DNA from: Heptranchias perlo
Lineage: Eukaryota
Assembly (NCBI RefSeq): GCF_035084215.1
Contig: NC_090340.1
Location: 4,712,001 to 4,776,000, forward strand
Length of the DNA stretch: 64,000 bases
Direction of reading: 5' to 3'
In this document: positions 32,050 to 55,468 of the stretch, one piece after another
Layout of the letters: each line of letters opens with the position of its first letter
Position numbering within the stretch: position 1 is the first letter of the stretch
Made by a program: the position numbers and the translations under genes
Notes under the pieces: generated by a model
What the model was told of the DNA's origin: nothing
Database searches by the model: none
What the model saw: only the letters and a program-made list of their open reading frames with translations

Positions 32050-33850
32050 ATACACTCCCAACCAAAGAGTAACTTCCACCAATGGTGCTTCGTTCGGGTC
32101 TTAACTCGTTCAAGAACCTTCGCGATCTGTATTCCACCCTGATGGACATTTGTGGTAATTACCATAGCATCACTTTCTACTGTATGCAATAGTTTAATTA
32201 ACTCCTTATACTGTAAAAGTTATTGCACCAATGCCAGGCTCATTCCCAATACTACAAGTTCTCTGTGTCTGTACAAAGTATAATTTCCATGTCCCTGATG
32301 GCGTAGCCATTTTAATATCACATTCCCGCATCGTTGTAACATTGCAAATACATACATTATTCCAGTTCGGGAATTCTATGAACACTTCTTTAATAGTTAT
32401 GTTGGGACAAGTCGTACGTACATACATTCACCCCTTTCCTATTACACGACTTTAGTTTCTCTTCTCCCATCAGATTTAAGATCAAAATGACACTTGTTTC
32501 TCGTCCCTTCTTGGGTTTAAACAAGGATCACTATTCTCAAGTTTACTTCCTTCACAAACAAATCCAAGACCTCCTTCGTGTGTGCATGCCTCCACTGACA
32601 TAAATTCCCATCGTCCATCTGTCCCTTTAGTTGCGACTGAGCGAAGATCAGTTGGCATTACGAGTGTCGTATTTTGCTCTAATCTTAGACTTATTGTAGG
32701 ATAAATGGAGAGGCAGGTCGCATTGTTCAAATTTAGTACATACCCAACATCATATGGAAAGTTTACTATATGCCAACAATTCTGCCATTTATGTTCAAAC
32801 TCTGAAGAGGTATCCCATCTTATCTTTTTGCATCTTTGGGTATATCATTCTTTTGCCCCATCCCTTTTCATTCCCATGCCCACAGTTTGTAGCCACGCTT
32901 GGCCTATTATGTGGAAATTGCTAAGAATGCATTCTCCTGTTCCATCCCTCGTGCTTCCAGGAGGAACAAATGATATTTTTCATTCCCGTGATTCCAATAA
33001 AGGAACAGGTGCGCTTGCATCCACTCACCCATTGCCATTTTCTCCAAACAGGTTACCAGAGGTTTACCCATACCCCTTACTGAGTGACGTAATTTATTCG
33101 TCAATGTTTCCACATTCATACTATTCAAAACACCTACCGCAGCACCTGTTCCTCCAAATACTCTACCCAGAATATCACGTTGACAACATGTATGCGATTT
33201 TTAAGATTGATATGGCAGCGTAAGCAACCTATTATTCTAACCTGAATTTAGTATTTTAATGAAGGGGGCGCACTTCGGTTTTATTGAGGAGATATTAATT
33301 CATTTTTGGGATATTACTATTTTCTTCAGGATACTACTTGGATTCTCCATTGATCCTTGTGGCGTATTTGGTCCTACTACATATGGACACACCCATGTTA
33401 CATTTGGAGTCATTGTTGGTAAACGGGAAATTTCTCCGTAAAAAATGGACGGTCCATAATTAGTCCAAATCCCTCCCATTTCTGGTCTCATGCGGGTCTG
33501 ATTTCCACCTTTACACCACACTATTAAGTGCACTTGTTGTGTGTTGTTACACCATCCATAATCACATTTATACCAGGGCCACGAGGTAACCATTTATGCC
33601 TGGGAGCATTACCGAATCTATTTTGTACAATTTAAACTAAAGGCCAGAAACTTACCATGTGGATTCACTATCGTGATGTTGTAATTTGGCCCATTTAATT
33701 TATTTGGTCCTACTTGACTATATCGTACTTCTTTATTAAGGTCTTTATCGAGTTTTGCATATAAGGGGTTATTCCATGTTATAAAATGACATTTATAACC
33801 TACGGCTACCCAAATGTCAATCAATTGTCCACATATTTTCAAGTGTCATC
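32050..33850 (-). pseudogene. Env-like fusion glycoprotein relic
   Basis: Cys/Trp-rich SU-like fragments; QR|DILGRVFGGTGAAVGVLNSMNVETLTNKL fusion-peptide-like segment (about 33180-33090); Cys-rich ectodomain; membrane-proximal HHWWKLLFGW (about 32060-32090). Multiple frameshifts. Confidence 0.7.
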
Positions 33851-36587
33851 TCCCAACAATCTCGCATCGTTTACAGTAGCTATACCCTCGCACCAGTAGA
33901 CTGCTAAGCTATGGTGTTTGCAATTGTTGGGTCAAGGACCAGTCCAGAACCGATTGTGACTCTACCTGACGTCCGTTGCTTTTCTCCGAAGGCAGGGGCA
34001 TATTACCATGACAGGTCCAAATTATAAAGGTGTTTTGCACTTCGTTACCTCTCAACGTTATTCCACCTACCCCGGGTAAGCATCTTGTCTCTAAATGATG
34101 ATGATCGCCTGGGTGGTGTTGGTCTCAAAACTATGCGGTGCCACATTAGGCCAGAAGGACATATTGAGTCTCCCGTACCCAACCATGCGTCATAGGCCAT
34201 AGACTCATGAATAACCGTAACATCTTAATTCGTGCGGCTAACTTGCTCTCTGTAATGTAAAGCACAGTGTCAGATTATCGTACAGTTTTATCTACTGCTG
34301 CTATCGATTTGAGCTGGTTAATATGGTACAATTCAATTACCTTTTCATTTCCTTTTCCTGTATACTGTATTAAGTACAGATCCAGATTTGCTCTGTATAC
34401 TATGGGGAAGAGTCTTTTCCATTTACGCTCAAATACGTGTTCTCGTTTCGCATAATTCAGAACCATAACTAAATCTCCTACCTAATTCAGAGGGTTTTAC
34501 TTCTTTGTGGAAGTACATTTTAACCTGATTATTAGAAATCCCAATGTTACTTGCCGCAAGTCGGTTAGTTTCGTTTACATATTTCACCGTCTGAATTAAC
34601 AATTTCCTTCCGATCATTCCCAACAACAAGAGTTGCAGTGGGCACTAAAATGGGTCTTGGTATGAGTATTAGTCTACCCGTCATGGTGAGATACCTATAA
34701 TGGCAGGAGGGATTGATCGAATTTCTATAAGACACATAGGCAGCATGTTCATCCATTGAGTGAGGTGATCTGCACGAAACGTCTTTAACATAGTTTTTAA
34801 TGTCCGATTTGTTCTTTCGACCTCACGCGACGATTGTGGGCGATGTGAGATGTTCAGTTTGTGCTCTGTTTTCATGAGCTTTTGGAGTTCAGTAAAGATG
34901 TTGTCTGTGAAATGTGATCCTTGATCATTATCTATTATATCCGTACTCCGCACTTGCAGACCAACGCACTCAACAATATTCTAGCTGCAATAATAACGGT
35001 GTTGGTCTTACATGGTAATAATTCCATCCACTTTGTGAATTTCTAAATAATGACCAAACAATGCAAGCATCCTGAAGGCGCCTGGTATAAAGGACCAATG
35101 AAATGAATCTGTAAATGCGTCCAATGTCCTTCGGGTGACGGGGGTGGTGGGGGGTGGGGGGTGGGGGGGGGGTGGTTGCGTGTACCTCGAAGAAAAGCAC
35201 GATTGATGTGTAAGGCTGGAATGTGTTGTGGGCATACTAAACATCTCGCTGCACGGTGAATGAAATCCTCTTTGCATTCAGGCCACCGTGCAATTTTTTG
35301 GATTTAATGCGCTGTGGTCACTGCAGAAAAATGCACCCCCGGCATGACCTTGGAACATGTCAAAGAATCCTTCAGCCATAGTAGGGGGAATACACACAAT
35401 TGGGAAATATTTGGCCTTGGATTGATACACGAGTATCGCCAAGCGTGGTTTCGTGAGACCATGGTGTGGGTTGAGATAGTAGTTTATTTTCTTGGTGCCA
35501 AACCATGGTTTGCTCATTCAATGACTTGGACATTTGTAGGATGTGTTAGTCACACGGACTGCAGCGGTTCAAAAAGGTGGCTCATCACCACATTCTCAAG
35601 GGCAATTGGGGATGGGCAATAAATGCTGGCCTCGCCAGCGACACCCACATCCCATGAACGAATACAAAAAAAAACTTGACGGATATGACTAGCTATGGCA
35701 CAGATACGGCCATTGGAAAATGGACCAAAATGATACCCGGTGTGGGCGGCCTTTTCGGCAGCCTTGTTGGCTTGGCAATTACCGACTGAATGTTGATCGG
35801 TTCCTTTGGTGTGGGCCTTTACCTTACCTATGAAGCGCGACTGTCTTCTATCTCTTTATGCGTTCCACAACATTCTAAATACATCACCATGTACTCGCAA
35901 TTTTGTTTCAGATGTGTGGTAGCTATTCTTGCAATACGGAGGAAGTGACAAATATAGCAATGATAGTGCCGATTGATGTGCTGTTTTGCAGCACATCCTT
36001 TTCATCCGATCATAAAAGCAAATGGAAACATTCTAGTGCTGTCAAAAGCCAAAAAGTGCAATTTGCAGATTTTGTCGGTAAACTGCAGAATCGCTACTGC
36101 TCTTTACAGCCAATAACAAAATAAACCAGTCCTTCTCTCAGATAGAGCATGTCAATTCAATACTAAGCTCAGCTCATCCATTAGCTCCGGTTCGGTAACA
36201 AATGTGCAGCAACGGACTTCAGCCATCGCTGATACATTACTTGACACGCCTTCTGTGACCCAGGCAATGTCGTGGCTGATGAGGGTTATTGAGCAAAATG
36301 AAATATTCGCCATGGCTTTCTCAGGAGTTCCCGCCGATGTTTTGCCCGTATTGCGGCGGGAGTTGGGAGGAAACGCTGCCGAAATTCAAGGACAATTAAT
36401 TGACACCAACGCTGAAGAACGGCTTTTTCTGCTACACCAATTAACTATACAGGACCGTAATTTACAATAAATAACAAAAAGGTTTTATTTTACGTCTACG
36501 CACATTAACCCGATGTATGAGGCAAGTATTTCGTTAAATTTACATTGCTGATTCGTGTCAGTTGCTAACTTAGCCTTGGGACGATCC

Positions 36588-41110: not shown

Positions 41111-41317
41111 AATGAAATTATATTAGATACACAGCCGCCCATTCATCAATTTTTCATCCATTCAGTTCTCAGTCACAAAGGATGATATACTGTACTTTCA
41201 GTACACGATATGTCTATGAGTTTGTCACTTTGGAGCATTTGTTCCTTGGGCATATTCTATCAAGGCAGGCTTTTATTTTTGTTGTTATCAATCAATTTTT
41301 CCTGAAAAAGAAACAGC

Positions 41318-41340
41318 ATGAAGCCGATAATATATTTGAG
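41318..41340 (+). CDS. Candidate first coding exon (MKPIIYLR, phase-2 donor)
   Basis: agcATGa context (A at -3). GAG|gtacaa donor is phase 2, matching the acceptor ttcag|a at 41556. Branch-point-like TACTAAT at about 41507-41513. Confidence 0.55.
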
Positions 41341-44300
41341 GTACAATCGGATATTGTTTCATGCTGGATTAATTTGAAGTATTTTTTATCATTTCCCTTG
41401 CCAAAGGGAAACATCAAGTTGAGAAAGGTGATGTTATTTTTCGTCATTCAATGAGGAAACAATTTCATCAGATGGAGAATAATTCTCCGCGTTAGGTACA
41501 TTCAATTACTAATGTATCAATGGATTGGATGGAAAAACTTATTTTGGTGGTTCAGATCATCTTCCCTGTGTAAGAATTATTTAATCGTGTGGCTTCTTTT
41601 GTTGATAGTTGCTGTGGACATTTCAGGCAAATTGATTCCGGATATTACAAAAAAGAAGGCAGTAAGAGGTACGAACATTACCTTGAAATGTCCTTTTCCC
41701 TTCGATCTCAATCATTCAAACATGAAGGTTCACTGGTGGAGAGAGGGCAACTTTACCTTTCTGAAAGAAGACAGTAGAACACAGTTCCAAATAGAGAAAG
41801 GCTGCGCCTTTCTTCATCTCCTGAATGTGACTGTCTCGGACAACGGGACGTATCGTTGTGCAATTAAAAATCAGAAGCAAACTGTTGGAAAAGGAACGCG
41901 TGTCGAAGTTGTTGTATATGGTAAGTATCAGTGGAACTGGAAACTTGAAGAGTTTAGTTGCTGTCGATACTCAAACTACGTTTGACATGGAATTCCAATA
42001 AGGAAATGCCCTGTGTATAAAAGAGTACAGCTTTCTAGTTGTTTATAACGACACGCATTCAACAATATGGAAACTTTCCCACTTCCAGAGTCTCTGCAAA
42101 ATGTGACAACTGACCTATATCAGCAATGTTATTGAATGTTATGTTCATCAAGGGAAGTAAATTCAAGGCTGAGAACTAAAATGCTTCTTTCCAATTTTAG
42201 CACTAAGTATCACTATGAAACACCTCGGGGTTATTTACAATGTTATAGATGTTTACAGGTCCAGTGGAGAGAAGAGGTTAGAAGAGGAAGATTCCCATTC
42301 CCTCGTTTAGACAGCGCGCTTCCCGCTTCTGCGAACCAGATACAATTCCTGAATCGGTGGAACAGGGGTGACACACACGATAAATCAGGTGTCATAGTCC
42401 AGACCAAGGTTTAAACTGGATCCTTTACGTACAAATGAAGGACATGTTCTGGCTGTAACAACAGAACGCGTTCTGTACTATTTCAACGGTTTAAGCGCAG
42501 CATGGCCATTCGTACATCATAATATCAATAAAAAGAGGTCCAACATTGAAAATAAATGTTGTTAAATTCAAAAGTGATACGTCAGTACTGCTGGCAATAA
42601 AATTGGTTAATACCTGTAGATACAGTGAAGAAAAAAATAGTTTGAGTTCCAGTCAGGATAAACAATAATTACCGTTACAAATACGATGCCCCGTCACAGG
42701 CATTGATTAATTAATGAAAACAGAGTGTAGATAAGAGTACTGGCCAAATATTTTGCTTTATCTCTTTTTGATTATTACCATTTAGCTGTTCCCACTCCGC
42801 TGAAGATTGTCGCCATAACATCCGAAGCGGCTTCTTCCGCTTCTCTGCGACTGCAGTGCAGAACAACTCCTTTTTACCCGAAGGACTTTAATCTCATCTG
42901 GCAAAAAAATGGTACCGAAATCGTGACTGGAGTTGGAACTGAACAACAGTCAAACACAGAGGGACTGTATGAAGTTATTAGCACCTTAGAAGAGACACAT
43001 CCAATCGAGCGCGGCACAATTTACACCTGTCAAGTATATCACGATTCAAACTCAATTCCAGCAAATGCCAGCTACACCGTTGGTAACGATGGTAATATTA
43101 TTGCACACGTTCTACTTGTATCAATTTCTGTGTTTCTTTGCGCAGTAATTGAGTTTGCATCGCAGATAGTGGGTAAATACAAGAAAACGCGGAAAGTGTT
43201 TACTGCATTTGTTTGCATATCATTCTGTCACCTCCGAAGTCTGGTTTTATTCCAGCTCCCATCGATCGGGTGAAGATTCTCTTTCTGTTGGTTATTGGGA
43301 TATGATGAGAAATAATTTGGACTCAAGCAACTTGGCTAATATTGGGCACCAGACCTCAGCATATTTTCCATAATATTTTGCGAACTGGCAAATATTATTG
43401 CAAGTTCACTGAGAAAGGGCACGGGTGATACCGGAAACCGAACCATGCATCATTGGGATTGGAATCGTTAGTGAGGGTTGGAGGCATGGAGTGGCGGAAT
43501 TGATGAATTTGACATTCCCGCAGCCATGACGCAATCCAAGGTAATCCCGCATCATCAGATGCACAGTGCGGAGCCCTCGAAACTGCACTAAATATGGAAT
43601 ACTTAGGTTGTTCTTGTGGAAAGATGGAAAATGTGTTCGTGAGGATTTGTTCCGAAAGGCAATTCTAGCAAATTTGTAAATGCGTCCCATTATCTGTATG
43701 CGTTCGCCTTCAATCAGCAATTGTTATTTAATGTTAAGTTTTTCAAGGAAAGTAGATTCAAGGCTGCGAACTAAAATGCTTCTTTCTAATTTTAGCACTA
43801 AGTTTACGTATAAAACATATTGGGGTCATTTGCAATGTTGTAGATGTTTAAAGGACCAATGGAAGGAAGAGGATAAAGGAGGAAGATTCCCATTCCCTCA
43901 TTTTGATGACGCGCTTCCTGTTTCTGCGCTCCAGATAAAATTCCAGAATCGTCGGTCGGTGAAACAGGCAAGACACACACGATAAATCAGATGCCGTAGT
44001 CCAGACCGAGGTTTAAACTGGATCCTTTAGGTACAGATGAAGAAAATGTTCTCGAACAGCAGAACGCGTCCTGTACTATTCCAACTGTTTAGCACAGCAT
44101 GGCGATTCGTGCACCATAAAAAGAGGCCCAATTTTGGAGAAAAAAAATTGTAAATACAACAGTGATACATCAGTACTGCTAGGGAGGAAATTGAGTAATA
44201 GAAAACACCCAAAACATATTTAATATTTTCCAACATGTCGCGACCAGATGAATTTTTATCCCAATGAACTATACTCCCATCAATTTGTGGAGGATCATTC

Positions 44301-47300
44301 TGTGTGTTTTTTCCACCTTTTTACGGATTGCTGCTAATTATCCAAACTACGCGTTATTTGAAACACGTTGTTGCCGATTTCATGCAAATCAGATGAATAA
44401 AGAGTTAATGAAATGGACCTGCTGATGCTTTATGTATTGTATTAGTGTATTCTCATAGGATTATTTTTGTAAGTGATGTTTGTGATATATAAACTTACGT
44501 ATATTCATTTTAATTTCCAAATTTTCTAATTTTGTTTAGATATCAATCTGATAGATGTTGACTCTGCATTCAGTGTTGCTCTGATCGCTAAATGTGCCGG
44601 GATTGCAGTGGTAATTCTACTGTTGACAGTTATGATTGTGAAGGGACTTCAATTCATTACATCCAAAGGTATGAAGCATCCCGACTTTCTTGATCATTGA
44701 CTATCTGTTAGCAAATTATAACAAATTCCTTAAATTAGAAATTAACGTTATAATTGATACCGATACACGCAGGCAGAGACTGTATAACATCAGTATCACA
44801 TCATTGGTAGTGGAGCTGCCCAGTTGTACAAACTATCCGAGGGATTAATGTTTAAATATTTCTGAACGTTCATCCCCATATCTGTTTGCTTCAACTCAAA
44901 TATTAGATCATAACGCGACATTAGCAGTCTTGTAGCTGGAGTTTGCTGAACTCTGTTGGTGTAGGTCTAAATCTCGTGCAGTGAATGTCTTGGGTGCATG
45001 AAGTTTACACAGCTTCATCACAAGGGACATAACACAATGGAAGCGCGCGTTTCTAGAAACCTGGAGATAAGGCGTGATACTTGCGGCCCTATTAGATCCT
45101 GCGAACTAAACTAATTGCATTTGATTTCGTGGTTCTTGTGAAACACCGAAATATTGAGCAATTCTTGGCGATTCATTTCGATTTTATTTCCCGCCAGGTA
45201 CAACGAGAAATCCAGTGAATTCTGCTCGGCATGAAGATCGGGTAACGTCACCTTACTTTTCACTCTACTTTGTTTCAAAAGGACTGAGATTTTGCACTCA
45301 AATGAGACCACGTTAAGAATGTTTCCTGCTTGGATTTATTCTGTGCTTCTAGCTGTTCTGTAATAAAAAAAGCAATTTGTGCTAAAAAAAATAACATTGT
45401 AATATAGAATAACGAACGGTGTGTTTAGAAACTCTCGCATCGATTTTAAAAGGACAGATATATTATAGAATCATAGAATCATAGAAGTTACAACATGGAA
45501 ACAGGCCCTTCGGCCCAACATGTCCATGTCGCCCAGTTTATACCACTAAGCTAGTCCCAATTGCCTGCACTTGGCCCATATCCCTCGATACCCATCTTCC
45601 CCATGTAACTGTCCAAATGCTTTTTAAAAGACAAAATTGTACCCGCCTCTACTACTGCCTCTGGCAGCTCGTTCCAGACACTCACCACCCTTTGAGTGAA
45701 AAAATTGCCCCTCTGGATCCTTTTGTATCTCTCCCCTCTCACCTTAAATCTGTGCCCCCTCGTTATAGACTCCCCTACCTTTGGGAAAAGATTTTGACTA
45801 TCGACCTTATCTATGCCCCTCATTATTTTATAGACTTCTATAAGATCACCCCTTAACCTCCTACTCTCCAGGGAATAAAGTCCCAGTCTGTCTAACCTCT
45901 CCCTGTATGTCAAACCATCAAGTCCCGGTAGCATCCTAGTAAATCTTTTCTGCACTCTTTCTAGTTTAATAATATCCTTTCTATAATAGGGTGACCAGAA
46001 CTGTACACAGTACTCCAAGTGTGGCCTCACCAATGCCCTGTACAACTTCAACAAGACATCCCAACTCCTGCATTCAATGTTCTGACCAATGAAACCAAGC
46101 ATGCTGAATGCCTTCTTCACCACCCTATCCACCTGTGACTCCACTTTCAAGGAGCTATGAATCTGTACTCCTAGATCTCTTTGTTCTATAACTCTCCCCA
46201 ACGCCCTACCATTAACGGAGTAGGTCCTGGCCCGATTCGATCTACCAAAATGCATCACCTCACATTTATCTAAATTAAACTCCATCTGCCATTCATCGGC
46301 CCACTGGCCCAATTTATCAAGATCCCGTTGCAATCCTAGATAACCTTCTTCACTGTCCACAATGCCACCAATCTTGCCTCCTAAATTCTCATCCAAATCA
46401 TTAATATAAATAACAAATAACAGCGGACCCAGCACCGATCCCTGAGGCACACCGCTGGACACAGGCATCCAGTTTGAAAAACAACCCTCTACAACCACCC
46501 TCTGTCTTCTGTCGTCAAGCCAATTTTGTATCCAATTGGCTACCTCACCTTGGATCCCATGAGATTTAACCTTATGTAACAACCTACCATGCGGTACCTT
46601 GTCAAATGCTTTGCTGAAGTCCATGTAGACCACGTCAACTGCACAGCCCTCATCTATCTTCTTGGTTACCCCTTCAAAAAACCCAATCAAATTCGTGAGA
46701 CATGATTTTCCTCTCACAAAACCATGCTGACTGTTCCTAATTAGTCCCTGCCTCTCCAAATGCCTGTAGATCCTGTCCCTCAGAATACCCTCTAACAACT
46801 TACCCACTACAGATGTCAGGCTCACTGGTCTGTAGTTCCCAGGCTTTTCCCTGCCGCCCTTCTTAAACAAAGGCACAACATTTGCTACCCTCCAATCTTC
46901 AGGCACCTCACCTGTCGCGGTGGATGATTCAAATATCTCTGCTAGGGGACCCGCAATTTCCTCCCTAACCTCCCATAACGTCCTGGGATACATTTCATCA
47001 GGTCCCGGAGATTTATCTACCTTGATGCGCGTTAAGACTTCCAGCACCTCCCTCTCTGTAATATGTACACTCCTCAAGACATCACTATTTATTTCCCCAA
47101 GTTCCCTAACATCCATGCCTTTCTCAACCGTAAATACCGATGTGAAATATTCATTCAGGATCTCACCCATCTCTTGTGGTTCCGCACTTAGATGACCTTG
47201 TTGATCCTTAAGAGGCCCTACTCTCTCCCTAGTTACCCTTTTGCCCTTTATGTATTTGTAGAAGCTCTTTGGATTCACCTTTGCCTGATCTGCCAAAGCA

Positions 47301-50300
47301 ATCTCATATCCCCTTTTTGCCCTCCTGATTTCTCTCTTAACTCTACTCCGGCAATCTCTATACTCTTCAAGGGATCCACTTGATCCCAGCTGCCTATGCA
47401 TGTCATATGCCTCCTTCTTATTTTTGACTAGTGCCTCAATCTCCCGAGTCATCCAAGGTTCCCTACTTCTACCAGCCTTGCCCTTCACTTTATAAGGAAT
47501 GTGCTTGCCCTGAACCCTGGTTAACACACTTTTGAAAGCCTCCCACTTACCAGACGTCCCTTTGCCTGCCAACAGACTTTCCCAATCAACTTCTGAAAGT
47601 TCCTGTCTAATACCATCAAAATTGGCCTTTCCCCAATTTAGAATTTTAACTTTTGGGCCAGACCTATCCTTCTCCATAGCTATCTTAAAACTAATGGAAT
47701 TATGATCACTGGTCCCAAAGTGATCCCTCACTAACACTTCTGTCACCTGCCCTTCCTTATTTCCCAAGAGGAGGTCAAGTTTTGCCCCCTCTCTAGTCGG
47801 GCCATCCACATACTGAATGAGAAATTCCTCCTGAATACACTCAACAAATTTCTCTCCATCCAAGCCCCTAATGCTATGGCTGTCCCAGTCAATGTTGGGA
47901 AAGTTAAAGTCCCCTACTATTACCACCCTATTTTTCTTGCATCTGTCTGTAATCTCCTTACATATTTGCTCCTCAATTTCCCGTTGACTATTTGGGGGTC
48001 TGTAGTACAATCCTATCAAAGTGATCTCTCCCTTCTTATTTTTCAGTTCTACCCATATGGACTCAGTGGGCGAACCCTCGGATATATCCCCTCTCACTAC
48101 TGCCGTGATGTTCTCCCTAATCAAGAACGCAACTCCCCCTCCTCTCTTACCTCCTGCTCTATCTTTCCTATAGCATCTGTACCCTGGAACATTGAGCTGC
48201 CAGTCCTGCCCCTCCCTGCCCCTCCCTTAGCCATGTACCCATCCATGCCCTGAGTTCATCTGCCTTGCCCATCAGACTTCTTGCATTGAAATAAATGCAG
48301 TTTAATCTAGACTTCCATTGGTCTTTGCCCTGCTTTCTCAGACCATCTGTCCGGTCATGTTCTGTACACTCTCCCTTACTGCCTTTTGTTTCTGTCACCA
48401 CTTTATTTCCCACTGACTTCCTGCATCGGTTCCCATCCCCCTGCCACATTAGTTTAAACCCTCCCCAACAGCACTGGCAAACACTCCCCCTCGGACATTG
48501 GTTCCAGTCCTGCCCAGATGCAGACCGTCCAATTTGTACTGGTCCCACCTCCCCCAGAACCGGTTCCAATGGCCCAGGAATTTGAATCCCTCCAGCTTGC
48601 ACCATCTCTCAAGCCACGTATTCATCTTAGCTATCCTGTCATTCCTACTCTGACTAACCCGTGGCACTGGTAGCAATCCTGAGATTACTACCTTTGAGGT
48701 CCTACTCTTTAGTTTAACTCCTAACTCCCTAAATTCAGCTTGTAGGACCTCATCCTGTTTTTTACCTATATCGTTGGTGCCTATATGCACCACGACAACT
48801 GGCTGTTCACCCTCCCCCTCCAGAATGTCCTGCAGCCGCTCCGAGACATCCTTGACCCTTGCACCAGGGAGGCAACATACCATCCTGGAGTCTCGGTTGC
48901 GTCCGCAGAAACGCCTGTCTATTCCCCTTACAATCGAGTCCCCTATCACTATAGCTCTGCCACTCTTTTTCCTGCCCTCCTGTGCAGCAGAGCCAGCCAC
49001 GGTGCCATGAACCTGGCCACTGCCACCTTCCCCTGGTGAGCCATCTCCGCCAACAGTATCCAAAACGGTATACCTGTTTTGGAGGGAGATGACCGCAGGG
49101 GACCCCTGCACTGCCTTCCTACTCTTCCTCTGTCTGTTGGTCACCCATTCACTATCTCCCTCAGTAATTTTTATCTGCGGTGTGACCAACTCACTGAACG
49201 TGCTATCCACGACTTTCTCAGCATCGCGGATGCTCCAAAGTGAGTCCATCCGCAGCTCCAGAGCCGTCAAGCGGTCAAACAATAGCTGCAGCTGGACACA
49301 CTTCCCGCAGGTGAAGGAATCAGGGATACAGGAAGGAGCCCTGAATTCCCACATCCCACAAGAGGAACATGACACGGCGCTGGGATCTCCTGCCATGACT
49401 TAACCCTTAAATTAGCTTAAGAACAACTACAATGTCAAGAGAAAAAAAAAGGAAAGAAAAACTACTTACCACTCCCTTTAAGGAGTTTACTCCTTTAAAT
49501 TGTTCTCAATTTAGAGAATGTTAACTACACTGGGGACCTTGATTCATTAAAAATAAACGCTACTTCCTATAAGACCTGCAGACCTTCCCTTTCCTTTTAC
49601 TTCAGTTACTGTAGATAAGGAGAAATACTCACCTGAACCTACTCACCAATCAGGTGCCTCCCCTGTGTCGCGTCCCGATCTGATTCCTGACGTCACTTCG
49701 AACTCGGTCGCAGCTCCGCTCGGCTCCTCTCAGCTGTTCTCAGCGCTCTGAAATCCCGCCTTTTATCGGACGCTCCCTCCGCTCGGCTCGGCTCCTCTCA
49801 GCTCCTCTCAGCGCTCTGAAATCCCGCCTTTTATCGGACGCTCCCTCCGCTCGGCTCGGCTCCTCTCAGCTGTTCTCAGCGCTCTGAAATCCCGCCTTTT
49901 ATCGGACGCTCCCTCCGCTCGGCTCGGCTCCTCTCAGCTGTTCTCAGCGCTCTGAAATCCCGCCTTTTATCGGACGCTCCCTCCGCTCGGCTCGGCTCCT
50001 CTCAGCGCTCTGAAATCCCGCCTTTTATCGGACGCTCCCTCCGCTCGGCTCGGCTCCTCTCAGCTGTTCTCAGCGCTCTGAAATCCCGCCTTTTATCGGA
50101 CGCTCCCTCCGCTCGGCTCGGCTCCTCTCAGCTTCTACCTTCTTAAAAATTGCCTTAATATTTAAAGCACAACAGTAGTATTGAGCATTACAAAACGTTG
50201 TTCGTTTCTTTGTGCTAACCAGGTGATGGCATGGAAATGTAAACTCCCAACATTGATCCTTGTTCATCAATTGACAACAGAACTCCATAGTCGATTTGGA

Positions 50301-53300
50301 CCTTCCTAAACAGTCCATTATTGTTACCATACTTCCACTCCGCCTTTCTGCGCTGCGTCCGTTTAGACCGGTGACCTAACCTGCCTTCTCCCAGGTGACC
50401 GAACCCAAAGGGTATAGGCCGTGCAGCCAATCTGCGGTTATCTTTCATAAGCTAGTGGCCTCAAACAGTGTCATATTAGAGGCTGTTCCCGCCCATAGTT
50501 CCAAAAGTGGAGGCGTGGAAGTTGGATCAAGTTGCTGTTAGAGCACACATTTCTTTATTATTCAGTCTCGGGATCTGGGTTTCGTTGGCAAGGCCGATAT
50601 TTATTGCCCATTCCCTAGTTATCCTGAGAAGGTGGTGGTGGGCTTTCTTCTTGAACCGCTTTAGAAATTAAGTGGCTTGCTCGGCCACTTCAGAGGACAG
50701 TTAAGAGTTAACCACTTTGTTGTACGTCTGGATTTACTAGTAGGCTGGACCGGGTAAGGATGGCAGGTTTCCTTCCCTAAAGGATATTATAGAACCAGCT
50801 GGGTTCTTACGACAATTCAACAGATTCCTGTCACTGTCACTGATACCACCTTTTTTCCCAAATATTTTAAACTAAATTCAAGTTCTAAAACTATTATTTA
50901 AACTCAGCTGCTCAGGATTATTATTCCAGGCCCCTGGATATGGTGACTAAAGTTGAAAAAATATTCTGGAATTATATGCGCTTCACCATTTTAGGAATAA
51001 TGTGACATCGCTTTCTACCTTCCTTATAAACATCGAGTCAGCATGAGATGTTTGCTCGGCTCAGGGCCATGGACCCTCCCCTAAGCGGGCATTGTGCCCC
51101 CAGTGACATGCAAATCAATATCCAATTATATGATAGTCTCACCAGAGAGCTCTAACAATAAGACCCGTACTTTGTCTGCGTTGTATACTGTGATCTGGCA
51201 CATGCCCACATGTGCGTTCCTACTAGATTCCAAATGATAAGGATTGCGATGAATCCAGGTCAATTATGGACCAACAAGTTATTCAATTTTATATGGCATA
51301 CATGAATCATAGATTCATAGAAAATGTACGGCACAGAAGGAGGCAATTCGGCCCATCGTGTCCGCGCTGGCTGAGAAACGAACCACACAGCCTAATCCCA
51401 CTTTTCCGTATTTGGTCCAGAGCCCTGCAGGTCTCGGCTCTTCAGGTGCACATCGAGGTAATTTTTAAATGAGTTGAAGGTTTCTGCCTCTACCACCCTC
51501 TCAGGCAATGAGTTCCAGACCGCCCCCCCCCCCCCCCACCATCTGGGTGAAAAAATCCTCATTTCTGCTCTAATCCTGCCACCAATCACTTAAAATCTAT
51601 GATCTCTGGTTATTCACCCTCTGCTAAGGGAATTATCAACTCACTCTAGGCCCCTCATAATTTTGTACAGCCCACTACAATCACCCCCAGCCTCCTCTGT
51701 TCCAAAGAAAACAACCCAAGCCTACCGAATCTGTCATCATAGCTAAAATTCTCCAGCCCTGGCAACATCCTCGTAAATCTCCCCTGTACCCTCGATAGCG
51801 CAATTACATCCTTCGTGTAATGTGGTGACCAGAACTGTGCGTACTTCTCAAGCTGTGGCCTAACTAGTGTTTTATACAGTTCCAGCACAACATCCCTGCT
51901 TTTATATTCTATGCTTTGGCTAATAAAGAAAGCATTCCATATGCCTTCTTAACCACTTCATCTACCTGTCCTACTACTTTCAGGGATCTGCGGACATGCA
52001 CTCCAAGGACCCTCGCTTCTTCTACAACTCTCAGTATCCTCCCATTTATTGTTTATTCCCTTGCCTTGTTTGCTTTCCACAAATGCATCACCTCACACTT
52101 CTCCAGATTGAACTCCATTTGCCACCTTTCTGCCCACCTGACCAGTCCATTGAAATCTTCTTGCAGTCTACAGCTTTCCTCCTCACTATCAACCAAACGA
52201 CCTATCTTTTTGTCAACCGCAAATTTCTTAATCATGCCCTCTATGGTAAATTCCAAATCGTTGATGTATACCACGAAAAGCAAAGGACCTTGTACCGAGC
52301 CCCGCGGCACCCCACTGGAAACAGCCTTCCAGTCGCAAAAACACCCGTCGACAATTACCCTTTGCTACCTGCCACTGACCCAATTTTAGATCCAATTTGC
52401 CACATTCCCTTGCATCCCATGGGCCTTTACTAATGATTATGTTTATCACAGCAAGATTGACCAAGTTTCTATAACTACTCCTATATTATGAAACGAAGAT
52501 CCATTATATGGGCCGACGGCCTGGAATTTCCTTTCATAGATCCAACGCGGAGGTTAGATTCGATAACGGTTACATTCCCGTGCTCATTCTGCCAAAGTTG
52601 TTAGGCTCCAATTTACTGTCAATCTCATTTCAATACGCTCCACCGTAAAATGGGAGTGAATCACCTTATACACTCGGGGCCCAAGCAAAGCACCGAGCTG
52701 AAACGATATATTCCTTCTTTAAGTAAAAAAAAGTAAGGTTTCAATTCATTCATCCATCATAAGTACGTCATTGTGTGTAAAGCGATTCGGAATGTCCTGC
52801 GATTCTGAAAGGCGCTATACAATGCAAAATCATCCTTTATTGATGAACGTTAAGCACTATGTTTAGGCACGCACAATCGGGGAAACTTTTCAAGTTGTAA
52901 GGTGACTTCTCTTTGTGCTATAAAATCCATGAAAAGAAACATCTAACGGAGTGCCGGTCGCAGTAATCATACATGAAATAAAACGCTCGGTAAATTACAA
53001 TAGAACACCGGAAAATCACGTTGTTTCCTACTGCGCCTCAACAACAGGTAGTAATTTTAAGAGAGCCCCTGGGCAAGTGCAACTGCAGGAAACTTGCGTA
53101 TTAGTCCCTGTAAATTGGGACCGGGGCCATATTTATGGTCGGAGATTTGTTCAGTTGGAGGTATTGATAGACAGTCGTAAAAGATCGAGTAAGTATGCAC
53201 ATCATGGTTACGCAAATAACAATGAAATAAATGATTAGTTAATCTGTGTTGTTGGTGTTGGCTAAAGTATCATTTCTGGGCTAGGACATCAGGAGAACTC

Positions 53301-55468
53301 GCCTGCTGTTTTTAAAATCTTGTGCTCGTATCTTTTAAGTGCACTTATAGGAAGCCTTGGTTTTTCGTCTCATCTGACAATGGGACAATGCAACACTCCC
53401 CGAGTACTGCACGTGAACGTCAACTGACATTATAGGATTAGCTTCTGCAGTGGTGGTTTAATGCACGACCTTCTGATAAGAGTGCTATAGCGGAGTAAAG
53501 AACGTTGGGCTGGAATTGATGTAATTTCCGTGGAAGATGCACATAAAGGCCGTTTACGCCATTTCTCACAGGTTTCTGTCGAAGTTACAGTTGACGGCTT
53601 AAATTGCCTCTGTACTTGATGCCTAGAGACATGCGTAACCTGGTTGCAAACCAATTACGTATTTAAAAATCGCAGAATTTTGGGCAAAAGTGAGTTATGT
53701 GCCTGACAACAATACGCCGACATCTCCTCGATCTTTTACGACTGTCTATCAATACCTCCAACTGAACAAATCTCCGACCATAAATATGGCCCCAGTCCCA
53801 ATTTACAGGGACTAATACGCAAGTTTCCTGCAGTTGCACTTGCCCAGGGGCTCTCTTAAAATTACTACCTGTTGTTGAGGCGCAGTAGGAAACAACGTGA
53901 TTTTCCGGTGTTCTATTGTAATTTACCGAGCGTTTTATTTCATGTATGATTACTGCGACCGGCACTCCGTTAGATGTTTCTTTTCATGGATTTTATAGCA
54001 CAAAGAGAAGTCACCTTACAACTTGAAAAGTTTCCCCGATTGTGCGTGCCTAAACATAGTGCTTAACGTTCATCAATAAAGGATGATTTTGCATTGTATA
54101 GCGCCTTTCAGAATCGCAGGACATTCCGAATCGCTTTACACACAATGACGTACTTATGATGGATGAATGAGTTGAAACCTTACTTTTTTTTACTTATTTA
54201 TTTTGCTGCATAGAAACAGTATTTATGTTATACAAATAATTAATTTGCTATGAAACGCTTCGGGACATCCAGACATCCACAGTATCTGGACGCCTCTATG
54301 TAAATGCATTTTCTTCTTCCTCCGCCGCCCCACACTTGTCTGCGCTGAGGATTAATTTGCACAGCTGCCAATCGAAACGATCACGTTTCCCTTGTTTTGG
54401 GTGCATCGGTATTTAACTTATTATCTATGTCAGAATGTATTTACTTGTTTCTTTACTCTCGTTTATTTATTAATGTTTTAATTGAACTTTCATACGGGAG
54501 CGACAACATGTTTTTGTCCAGTTGTTGCACCCAACAACCTAAACTAAGGACGAAACTATTGAATTATGTGCCTCAATTTATTTATTTATATTTTTCATCC
54601 CGAACAAGGCAAAAATAATTCAACTTGTTTTATTAATATTTATAATGTAATTTCACACCAAATTGCAACTTGAATGATTGAGTATAAAACAAATTACATT
54701 CTGAATTTATTACACTATTGTAATGAAGGAGGATGTGATTTATCTGAATAACAAAAATCGATTAATTCGCAGTGACGCGTAAAACTCTTGTTCCTGGAAA
54801 TTTAATAGTTGCCAAAATTCGCGGCTAACTTTCAAAATATTAAAAATTGAAATTATTTAGTTTCTCAGTTGTTTACCATTTTCTAAACCAGCGGCTCGGG
54901 GTTATTGATGCCTGGCGAGCGTTGGACCGCAGAAAGAAATAGTAAACTTCATTAACATCCACAGAACTAATAATAAGGTCAATGCGACTATGCTGTCTGA
55001 ATTGTCTATTAGATGCAAAGGCTTCATGAATCTTGAAACTCCAGAAAAAGCACCTCAATGAATGCTAAACATTGACTTTCCAGAAAGAACGAGGGTCCAC
55101 TGAGGAGAAGCTGACGTACGCTGCTCTGGATCTGATCGGCTCCAAGAAAACGCTCAATTCGAAGCAACATGAAGAGCGTACAGTGTATGCAAAGGTACAG
55201 TTGAGTTCACACAGGGAAATAATAATCATGCAAAAGAGTATACGTTTGCTTTTGAGATGATACTGAGAATTAATTTGACTTCATTTTCATTTTTTTTTGG
55301 AAGAAAATGACAACATTATTCTTAATTTTTGTTTTACACACCAAACAGGTCGCCGCTGATAGTCAATTGACTTACGCTACTTTGAATTTGACTGGTTCCA
55401 AGAAAACGTCGAAACGTAAACAGAAAGAAACAAACCTAATATACGCAGCAGCGAAGACCAGCATCTAA
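41318..55468 (+). CDS. Multi-exon IgSF type I receptor: leader-V(J-joined)-C1-TM-cytoplasmic ITIM/ITSM (SIRP-like / VJ-C1 antigen-receptor-like); join(41318..41340,41556..41920,42786..43091,44540..44668,53048..53160?,55084..55194,55349..55468)
   Basis: All junctions are GT-AG with compatible phases (2,1,1,1,0,0) and give one stop-free ORF: MKPIIYLR|SSSLCKNYLIVWLLLLIVAVDISG-V-C1-TM-...LTYAAL...TVYAK|V...LTYATL...LIYAAAKTSI*. Exon 1 and the boundaries of the 53048 exon are least certain. Confidence 0.8.
41556..41920 (+). CDS. Signal-peptide h-region plus Ig V-set domain exon with J-like motif
   Basis: LIVWLLLLIVAVDISG, then ITLKC...VHWW...LHLLNVTVSDNGTYRC...VGKGTRVEVVVY (B-strand Cys, C-strand Trp, DxGxYxC, GxGT). 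Strong phase-1 donor G|gtaagt at 41921. Alternative phase-1 acceptors at 41609 and 41627. Confidence 0.92.
42119..42612 (+). repeat. Intronic direct repeat, copy 1 (V-C1 intron)
   Basis: Colinear with 43713-44200 at roughly 80% identity by eye, e.g. shared aactaaaatgcttctttc, ggaagattcccattccctc, ggtttaaactggatccttta. Confidence 0.9.
42786..43091 (+). CDS. Ig C1-set domain exon
   Basis: tttag|CT acceptor, phase 1. AVPTPLKIV...LRLQCRTTPFYPKDFNLIWQKNG...GLYEVISTL...YTCQVYH contains C1 hallmarks CxxxxFYP, W and YxCxVxH. Donor G|gtaata (alternative 9 nt earlier). Confidence 0.92.
43713..44200 (+). repeat. Intronic direct repeat, copy 2 (C1-TM intron)
   Basis: Colinear with 42119-42612. Confidence 0.9.
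44540..44668 (+). CDS. Transmembrane exon
   Basis: T-rich tract plus tttag|AT. Encodes DINLIDVDSAFSVALIAKCAGIAVVILLLTVMIVKGLQFITSK. Donor AAG|gtatga, phase 1. Confidence 0.85.
45551..48300 (-). pseudogene. CR1 ORF2 (APE endonuclease plus reverse transcriptase), inactivated by small indels
   Basis: 857-aa open stretch (YRPP, GDFN, SDH, QHGF, DFSKAFDKV, GVPQGS). The FADD motif is absent at about 46375. The N-terminus (CIYFNARSL) is frameshifted by a 10-bp duplication at 48205-48224 and lacks the ITETW motif. Confidence 0.9.
48449..49396 (-). CDS. CR1 ORF1 protein (Zn-finger/leucine zipper plus SGNH esterase-like domain)
   Basis: Intact 315 aa: CSSC...CGKC, heptad LLFDRLTALELRM, IVIGDSIVR, PGARVKD, HIGTND, DGLHL. 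Confidence 0.92.
   Translation of the reverse strand: MAGDPSAVSCSSCGMWEFRAPSCIPDSFTCGKCVQLQLLFDRLTALELRMDSLWSIRDAEKVVDSTFSELVTPQIKITEGDSEWVTNRQRKSRKAVQGSPAVISLQNRYTVLDTVGGDGSPGEGGSGQVHGTVAGSAAQEGRKKSGRAIVIGDSIVRGIDRRFCGRNRDSRMVCCLPGARVKDVSERLQDILEGEGEQPVVVVHIGTNDIGKKQDEVLQAEFRELGVKLKSRTSKVVISGLLPVPRVSQSRNDRIAKMNTWLERWCKLEGFKFLGHWNRFWGRWDQYKLDGLHLGRTGTNVRGGVFASAVGEGLN
49713..50132 (-). repeat. CpG-rich tandem array of 68-bp monomers at the CR1 5' end
   Basis: gcgctctgaaatcccgcc recurs at 49743, 49811, 49879, 49947, 50005, 50073 (periods 68,68,68,58,68). Confidence 0.95.
51303..52430 (-). mobile_element. Family A CR1 3' fragment (intronic)
   Basis: ORFs 51655- and 52053- (GPLLFVVYIND, WQMEFN). 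Confidence 0.85.
53048..53160 (+). CDS. Candidate small cytoplasmic exon (phase 1 to 0) linking TM to the ITIM exons
   Basis: The phase mismatch between the TM exon and the 55084 exon requires such an exon. Acceptor ttgtttcctactgcgcctcaacaacag|GT gives GSNFKRAPGQVQLQETC... Phase-0 donors at 53098 (weak, gtatta) or 53161 (GAG|gtattg). Confidence 0.55.
53190..53490 (-). mobile_element. 5' and central part of a tRNA/Deu-domain-type SINE; its 3' tail appears on the + strand at 54197-54308
   Basis: Resembles my recollection of shark Deu-SINE consensus (agcactc...tcagaaggt...gcagtact...agatgagacg...gagttctcc...tgtcct...). Tail aaacgcttcgggacatcc...taaatgca after 54196. Confidence 0.6.
55084..55194 (+). 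CDS. Cytoplasmic tyrosine-motif exon 1 (ITIM LTYAAL; TVYAK)
   Basis: ctttccag|AAA ... AAG|gtacag, phase 0-0. KERGSTEEKLTYAALDLIGSKKTLNSKQHEERTVYAK. Confidence 0.82.
55349..55468 (+). CDS. Terminal coding exon (ITIM LTYATL; LIYAAA; stop)
   Basis: T-rich tract plus aaacag|GTC. VAADSQLTYATLNLTGSKKTSKRKQKETNLIYAAAKTSI then TAA at 55466-55468. Confidence 0.82.
   Translation, partial: VAADSQLTYATLNLTGSKKTSKRKQKETNLIYAAAKTSI

Follow-up and report, generated by a model that had tools for sequence, protein, structure and literature searches.

Pairs of an immunoreceptor tyrosine-based inhibitory motif and a switch motif (ITIM and ITSM) recruit SHP-1/SHP-2 and occur in many unrelated receptors. Receptors with an Arg at the membrane edge use FcR-gamma or CD3-zeta, whereas the activating partners of SIRP carry a mid-membrane Lys for DAP12. 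KIR, LILR, PIR and CHIR are paired receptors with C2-type domains, and NKp30 (NCR3) is a single VJ domain directly before the transmembrane (TM) segment. Here, we analyzed a 64,000-nucleotide stretch of the genome of Heptranchias perlo (NCBI RefSeq assembly GCF_035084215.1, contig NC_090340.1, positions 4,712,001 to 4,776,000 of the forward strand; hereafter the window), which holds a non-rearranging gene whose frame is open throughout and specifies a type I membrane protein; the gene is likely an inhibitory member of a large family of paired receptors found in cartilaginous fish. SIRPs are defined by one V-set and two C1-set domains (PMC12975943; this and the other articles are cited from the accessible parts of their text); their origin was called unknown in a 2022 review (PMC9652883), and a 2026 survey places the family in tetrapods (PMC13262535). 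UrIg and UrIg2 are the published pre-RAG candidates and show linkage with the major histocompatibility complex (MHC) or the antigen-receptor complex (PMC12227049); SIRP, ITIM and inhibitory are not mentioned in the main text of that article, as far as it was accessible.

The gene comprises seven exons, which assemble by their coordinates into one open frame of 358 residues with consistent splice phases:

41210..41264, + strand: leader exon from the ATG, 18 codons plus 1 base, with a GC donor; matches the leaders of paralogues P0001 and P0002
41609..41920, + strand: V-type exon including the G strand (joined VJ type); Pfam V-set 43.3 bits
42786..43091, + strand: C1-set exon; Pfam C1-set 47.5 bits; its ends agree with the splice points of the paralogue contig described below
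44540..44668, + strand: stalk and TM exon of the uncharged class, by hydropathy and class profiles
45198..45241, + strand: 44-base cytoplasmic exon that sets the tail frame, by AG/GT ends and phase
55084..55194, + strand: first tyrosine-motif exon (Tyr294 ITIM-like, Tyr317 ITSM-like)
55349..55468, + strand: last coding exon with the stop codon (Tyr328 ITIM-like, Tyr351 weakened motif)

Profile scans found a single V exon and a single C1 exon in the whole window. The V domain (I-set, 31.7 bits, scored below V-set), the one genuine C1 domain (next Pfam family, 21.6 bits) and the TM segment (best 21-residue hydropathy, 2.7) that a first-pass annotation of this DNA had read were thus all confirmed. 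That annotation had placed the coding start at 41318, a position within intron 1 where the frame stops after 19 codons; the leader is instead the exon at 41210–41264, which matches the leaders of nine paralogous close loci. It also lacked the 44-base cytoplasmic exon, which we found in four paralogues and in a twin gene at 3.916 Mb of the same contig (99.5% identical over 29 kb). Intron 1 is of the GC-AG type and the remaining introns are all GT-AG; intron 5 spans 9.8 kb and contains a long interspersed nuclear element (LINE). The exon order from TM to tail recurs in three paralogues with different intron lengths, and horn shark protein P0012 aligns, in order, to all large exons.

The tail tyrosines at residues 294, 317, 328 and 351 form two modules in two exons, the last residue of the Tyr317 motif being contributed by the next exon. 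These two exons are duplicates of each other (approximately 80% identical over 40 bases). Three paralogues keep both in the same order, with introns of 5.0–8.5 kb, and the last coding exon is conserved in the twin and three paralogues. All four tyrosine motifs noted in the first pass are present, and three of them fit what we take to be the ITIM/ITSM consensus; the fourth is weakened, as discussed below.

Although the gene had first been treated as a single one, it belongs to a large family of about 80–100 copies clustered on C18, as we designate the contig that bears it (C3, C11, C12 and C22 below are other contigs of the same genome). Of 150 genomic candidates scored for the C1 exon, 130 are matches, 103 of them on C18, corresponding to 100 places after three split exons were merged; the V exon has 88 matches (120 scored), 87 of them on C18, or 84 once three fragments were dropped, and these counts include a duplicated block of approximately 0.8 Mb. 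Family members lie at 2.7–6.0 Mb and 14.5–15.6 Mb of C18, with one gene at 19.0 Mb, and a same-strand V exon occurs within 14 kb upstream for 83 of the 100 C1 places (two pairs share a V). For the first tyrosine exon, 48 of 49 matches at E<=10 were on C18, many of them representing both tail exons of one gene. Broken paralogues, with stops or split exons, are frequent in the cluster. The duplicated block lies in tandem at ~3.46–4.02 and 4.26–4.86 Mb, with differing gene content and 99.5% identity around this gene, and a pair resembling it occurs at 14.69 and 14.99 Mb; these blocks are either real duplications or uncollapsed haplotypes.

The family extends across cartilaginous fish. Database models from sharks, rays and the chimaera Callorhinchus (e.g., XP_067853494, XP_038662025 and XP_007902824) belong to it, under automatic and inconsistent labels (SIRP-like, tapasin-related-like or NCR3LG1-like). 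Among these proteins, P0001 corresponds to our locus L033 with a 100% match over all four exons, and the protein of this copy itself was absent from the database matches returned. In a family profile search, even the weakest hit in cartilaginous fish scored 151 bits, whereas a SIRP-alpha-like protein of a turtle scored 80 bits, and no one-to-one characterised orthologue was found. The ratio of nonsynonymous to synonymous changes (dN/dS) in the V exon was 1.5–2.0 against the four closest paralogues and 0.64 over 36 pairs, and that in the C1 exon was 0.47; derived from few synonymous changes and without a significance test, these values are suggestive only.

The family is divided into membrane classes. 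We read 69 of the 100 C1 places, leaving out most twins and several broken places, and sorted them by TM segment into 37 uncharged loci (including this gene), 15 loci of an Arg class and 17 unassigned ones. Within the Arg class, 14 of 15 loci carry an Arg at the outer membrane edge and one a Gln, and the tail is usually very short. The V domain of this gene is 75–78% identical to those of its Arg-class neighbours L028, L030 and L032 and 60–70% identical to those of three among four paralogues of the uncharged class, a pattern that sharing of ectodomains between signalling classes would produce. The family thus has the anatomy of paired receptors, in which genes of a cluster resemble one another in the ectodomain and end in an ITIM tail or in a charged TM segment with a short tail. 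In the same three neighbours (C18, 4.646, 4.685 and 3.847 Mb), the intact V exon is also closely preceded by a second copy of the leader and a truncated piece of V.

We therefore compared the family with described paired receptors. KIR, LILR, PIR and CHIR likewise form large tandem clusters shaped by birth and death, with ITIM and Arg-TM members of similar ectodomains, but their domains are C2-type, whereas those here are V and C1. NITRs also comprise clustered activating and inhibitory receptors with a joined V-J exon, but their second domain is described as I-type with a J-like end (10.1101/2021.06.11.448072), whereas here it is C1-set (other Ig families, <22 bits). Skate MDIR have CD300/TREM/pIgR-like domains (PMC3031540), and the C1 domain of this gene argues, by description, against kinship. 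By analogy, the gene would work like SIRP-alpha, KIR or LILR, and a role as an on/off receptor of innate immunity is more probable than that of a leftover from an antibody ancestor. In such a mechanism, the V domain would bind a self ligand displayed by another cell, Src-family kinases would phosphorylate the two pairs of ITIM and ITSM-like motifs, and each pair would engage the tandem SH2 domains of SHP-1/SHP-2, damping a myeloid or natural killer (NK)-like cell. The Arg-class neighbours, with almost no tail, may signal via an adaptor of the FcR-gamma/CD3-zeta type and would detect pathogens that imitate the self ligand. Overall, the analysis supports the earlier view that a cartilaginous fish has here an innate V-C1 receptor that does not rearrange (recombination signal sequences, RSS, are treated below) and bears an inhibitory tail.

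Several observations weigh against this assignment. The TM-class profiles were seeded partly from proteins of this very cluster, an uncharged TM segment is by itself no proof of an ITIM tail, and some uncharged-class loci seem to stop soon after the membrane. The joining across the 9.8-kb intron 5 is supported by splice phase and the paralogues. A contig from sequencing run X1, which we guess to be RNA, runs from a V end through C1 to an Arg-class TM segment without introns, is approximately 87% identical over the C1 exon and has loose ends that, on inspection by eye, resemble P0001 at the end of its V and the start of its TM segment. A spliced transcript linking the exons, on which the first-pass reading depended, is thus seen from V to TM for a paralogue and not for this copy, and nothing in the sequencing runs matched the V, TM or small exon of this copy. 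In addition, the leader donor is GC here and GT in all nine close paralogous loci, and the fourth tyrosine motif closes with Ala instead of the Val found in three paralogues.

The last two points raise the question of whether this copy is intact. It may be a young pseudogene or weak allele, drifting after a GT-to-GC donor change within an otherwise real family, a possibility that we regard as the less probable course. The GC donor is confined to this gene and its twin among the close loci compared, the Val of the fourth motif has been lost, a Lys precedes the conserved Cys of the TM exon (Glu stands there in two close paralogues, Gly in others), intron 5 holds a long LINE, and broken paralogues are common in the cluster. 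Conversely, no exon of this copy contains a stop or frameshift, three motifs are intact, and GC-AG introns can be spliced; the leader site keeps the splice consensus at positions −3 to −1, +3 and +5. We lean towards the view that this copy still makes the full-length protein.

A second alternative is that the family is a true SIRP lineage of cartilaginous fish, with one C1 domain and on another chromosome, this gene being the SIRP-alpha counterpart that reads a CD47-like "self" signal. The likeness is considerable. Both have a joined V and C1-set ectodomain and clustered paired members, and the four-tyrosine tail of this gene, in two ITIM/ITSM-like modules of the form LTYAxL ... xYAxV, has the same layout as the SIRP-alpha of turtle, rhea and skink, with a within-module spacing of 23 residues here versus 25–26 in SIRP. 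The turtle SIRP-alpha-like protein was the best non-chondrichthyan hit of the family profile, its top six matches in a back-search of the genome were family C1 exons (35–38% identity), and SIRP-alpha ranked third among the profile hits in the PDB. However, the margin of the back-search over Ig C1 exons was small (E values of 4e-9 and 2e-7), and such motif pairs are found in many unrelated receptors. Moreover, the V domain is shorter than that of SIRP (spacing between the paired Cys residues, 56 here and 54–59 in 55 of the 64 family exons with a pattern match, versus 62–64 in eight sauropsid SIRPs), and the family has approximately 80–100 copies.

Membership in the SIRP family fails on three features: there is one C1 domain instead of two, the partners carry Arg at the outer TM edge (14 of 15 loci) instead of the Glu-Lys in the middle of the TM segment of 13 sauropsid SIRP-beta-like proteins, and the family lies on a contig other than that of the usual SIRP neighbours. 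A PI31 domain was found on C22 and SEP domains on C22 and C3, in genes identified by Pfam family only, which we take to be the human SIRP neighbours PSMF1 and NSFL1C; C18 instead bears CBF-beta at 18.2 Mb, presumably the human 16q22 gene.

Phylogenies of the V and C1 domains settled less. In three trees, the family C1 domains formed one clade with full support and a long stem, but the sister of that clade changed from tree to tree; a grouping with SIRP was neither recovered nor rejected. The sister group was B7-H6-like domains in the first, quick tree, the Ig-type side in the second (support 51/49), and Ig/TCR plus two other rows (85/81), followed by SIRP C1b, in the third. Approximately unbiased (AU) tests on a 46-row C1 tree rejected none of seven placements, namely with all antigen receptors (p = 0.40, at a cost of 0.8 log-likelihood units), SIRP C1b (0.36), SIRP C1a (0.28), IgL and TCR (0.25), V-C1 genes of C11 (0.24), B7-H6-like domains (0.15) and MHC (0.11). 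In the V tree, whose deep nodes are open, in which L070 fell outside its own family and into which two C1 domains had been taken by mistake, the family V domains found no sister and were not grouped with SIRP V. The shark outgroup rows (IgL, IgM, TCR-like, UrIg-like, MHC, tapasin and B7-H6-like) carry labels that we assigned by recognising the sequences, and the trees included no NKp30 sequence. Taken together, we consider a SIRP origin of the family unlikely.

The first-pass annotation had noted the J-like end of the V domain, had pointed to germline-joined VJ genes as proxies for the pre-RAG receptor and had likened the ectodomain to a light chain or TCR. A window-wide scan found no RSS-like site near the V exon, in agreement with the first-pass annotation; one loose match approximately 770 bases downstream, in intron 2, and one after the V exon of L082 among the paralogues scanned were taken as chance. 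The G strand is encoded within the V exon, as the reported GKGTRVEV implied, but its GKGT sits two residues off the family register and no Phe precedes it. Across 61 family V exons, this end reads x-N-G-T-G-S-x-L-x-V, with Gly at the two register positions in 53 and 49 exons and [FW]GxG in two; this gene has Arg at the second Gly position and no Phe in that register. The V exons of L024 and L028 contain a perfect FGxGTxxxV look-alike, also two residues off the register, which seems to have arisen by drift. Ig light chains and TCRs differ in having separate V and J segments with RSS and the J consensus FGxGTxLxV (PMC11599192), which this gene does not show. Since GxG is common in the joined V exons of many families, including CD79, NITR, SIRP, CD8, NKp30, PRARP and the CD28 family (PMC11599192), it marks no special kinship to a pre-RAG receptor, and the family has no special claim to such a role.

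Structure prediction also lends no support to a light-chain-like ectodomain. A model of the V domain of the twin, identical in sequence (predicted local distance difference test score, pLDDT, 85), has a short C′ strand and no C″ strand and matches titin I-set, NKp44, TREM2 and VNAR about equally (Z, 11.5–12.6, all from predictions); the V domain is short and, in the model, I-set-like, with an extra unpaired Cys at residue 84. The two-domain model of paralogue P0002 (pLDDT 87), whose V likewise shows a short C′ and no C″, superposes on B7-H6, B7-H3, ICOS-L and BTN2A1 at ~3–3.6 Å over ~180–190 residues, versus 5.8 Å for SIRP-gamma and 9–12 Å for Fab, TCR and UrIg2 chains, these superpositions being of predicted models of a lone chain. 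The best two-domain match was B7-H6 (Z, 15.2; root-mean-square deviation, 3.0 Å over 182 residues), tied with several others. B7-type V-C chains are thus structurally alike; B7-H6, however, is a ligand without such a tail, and in this genome the B7-H6-like genes are located on C12, with V domains that make up a separate clade. Sequence and fold searches of the PDB were dominated by titin-like and antibody chains and named no close relative; NKp30 and SIRP V fell outside the top fold-search lists, which do not rule them out. NKp30 differs in any case, because a C1 exon stands between V and TM here.

A broader proposal is that the C18 clusters are the main self/non-self receptor complex of sharks for NK-like or myeloid cells, and that they arose from a V-C1 unit that was never split, with a C1 that is the sister of the Ig and TCR constant domains and lies near the root of SIRP. 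Such a complex would be equivalent to KIR/LILR, perhaps with MHC class I as ligand, and would represent a third, germline-diversified outcome of the V-C1 module; we regard this as quite improbable. Finally, descent of the family from the unsplit VJ-C1 lineage that gave Ig and TCR, with an ectodomain that pairs like a light chain, is very doubtful: the joined V exon with a true C1 and no RSS, the Ig/TCR side taken in two of three C1 trees, the low cost of joining all antigen-receptor C1 domains and UrIg2 as the top PDB hit of the C1 exon (a multi-domain sum) fit it, but the remaining C1 tree, the rarity of FGxG, the short V without C″ and the linear B7-like arrangement of the model do not, none of 43 MHC class I matches in the genome is on C18 (they are on high-numbered, maybe unplaced contigs), C1 exons of the IgH-, IgL- and TCR-like kinds map elsewhere than C18, and the published candidates UrIg and UrIg2, which share with this gene a non-rearranging joined V and C1 in elasmobranchs, have several C1 domains, a secreted form and linkage to MHC or antigen receptors (PMC12227049, PMC10751288), whereas here a lone C1 is followed by a membrane segment and a tail with ITIMs.

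The preferred reading, an inhibitory member of a germline paired receptor family, rests on a well-known principle, of which the domain combination and the scale are a variant, and database models of the family exist. Our literature search, with supplements and some subscription papers beyond reach, found no paper treating the V-C1 family. Little is charted of the innate on/off receptors that sharks possess, and a paired V-C1 family of 80–100 genes provides a concrete gene set for questions on missing-self recognition and the origin of SIRP-type checkpoints; it also shows wide use of C1 domains in proteins other than Ig, TCR and MHC. Taken by itself, the gene in the window contributes little that the family does not, and it may be in decay.

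Other V-C1 arrangements were encountered along the way. On C11, at 48.03–48.15 Mb, L111–L113 form a separate three-gene family, each member having one C1 and a joined V encoded by a single exon; weak hits of the V are to VNAR, TCR-alpha and light chains, the trees place the C1 on the Ig/TCR side, and these genes are possibly closer to antigen receptors than the C18 family. On the same contig, at 54.368–54.372 Mb (L148, L137), a V exon with an EIPPP motif lies approximately 2.6 kb upstream of a same-strand C1 exon. That motif has been described for CD28H and its relatives (PMC11599192), and its V domain type would be an unusual partner for a C1. The C1 domains of lungfish proteins P0116 and P0150 group with the first SIRP C1 (support 97–100), hinting at SIRP relatives outside tetrapods. 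Turtle proteins P0022 and P0160, auto-labelled pIgR-like and FCRL5-like, are tandem joined-V receptors with Arg-TM and ITIM-like forms, which are picked up by the family profile, although their V domains fall into a clade apart.

The window contains further elements outside the receptor exons, among them one in intron 5:

45551..50201, − strand: CR1-type LINE, not part of the receptor

We take it to be CR1 from its domain layout, an endonuclease/reverse transcriptase frame at 45551–48226 (891 residues) and an esterase frame at 48449–49399, with 68-base tandem repeats at 49651–50201, at its 5′ end. Intron 5 also holds a perfect 470-base inverted repeat (52720–53189 and 53727–54196) with a 537-base spacer, which is present in the twin as well. 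An old direct repeat (42127–42450 and 43722–44052; 83–88% identity) in introns 2 and 3 flanks the C1 exon. At ~32400–36500, short open frames, three of which had no match in Pfam, look by eye like remnants of a long terminal repeat retroelement.

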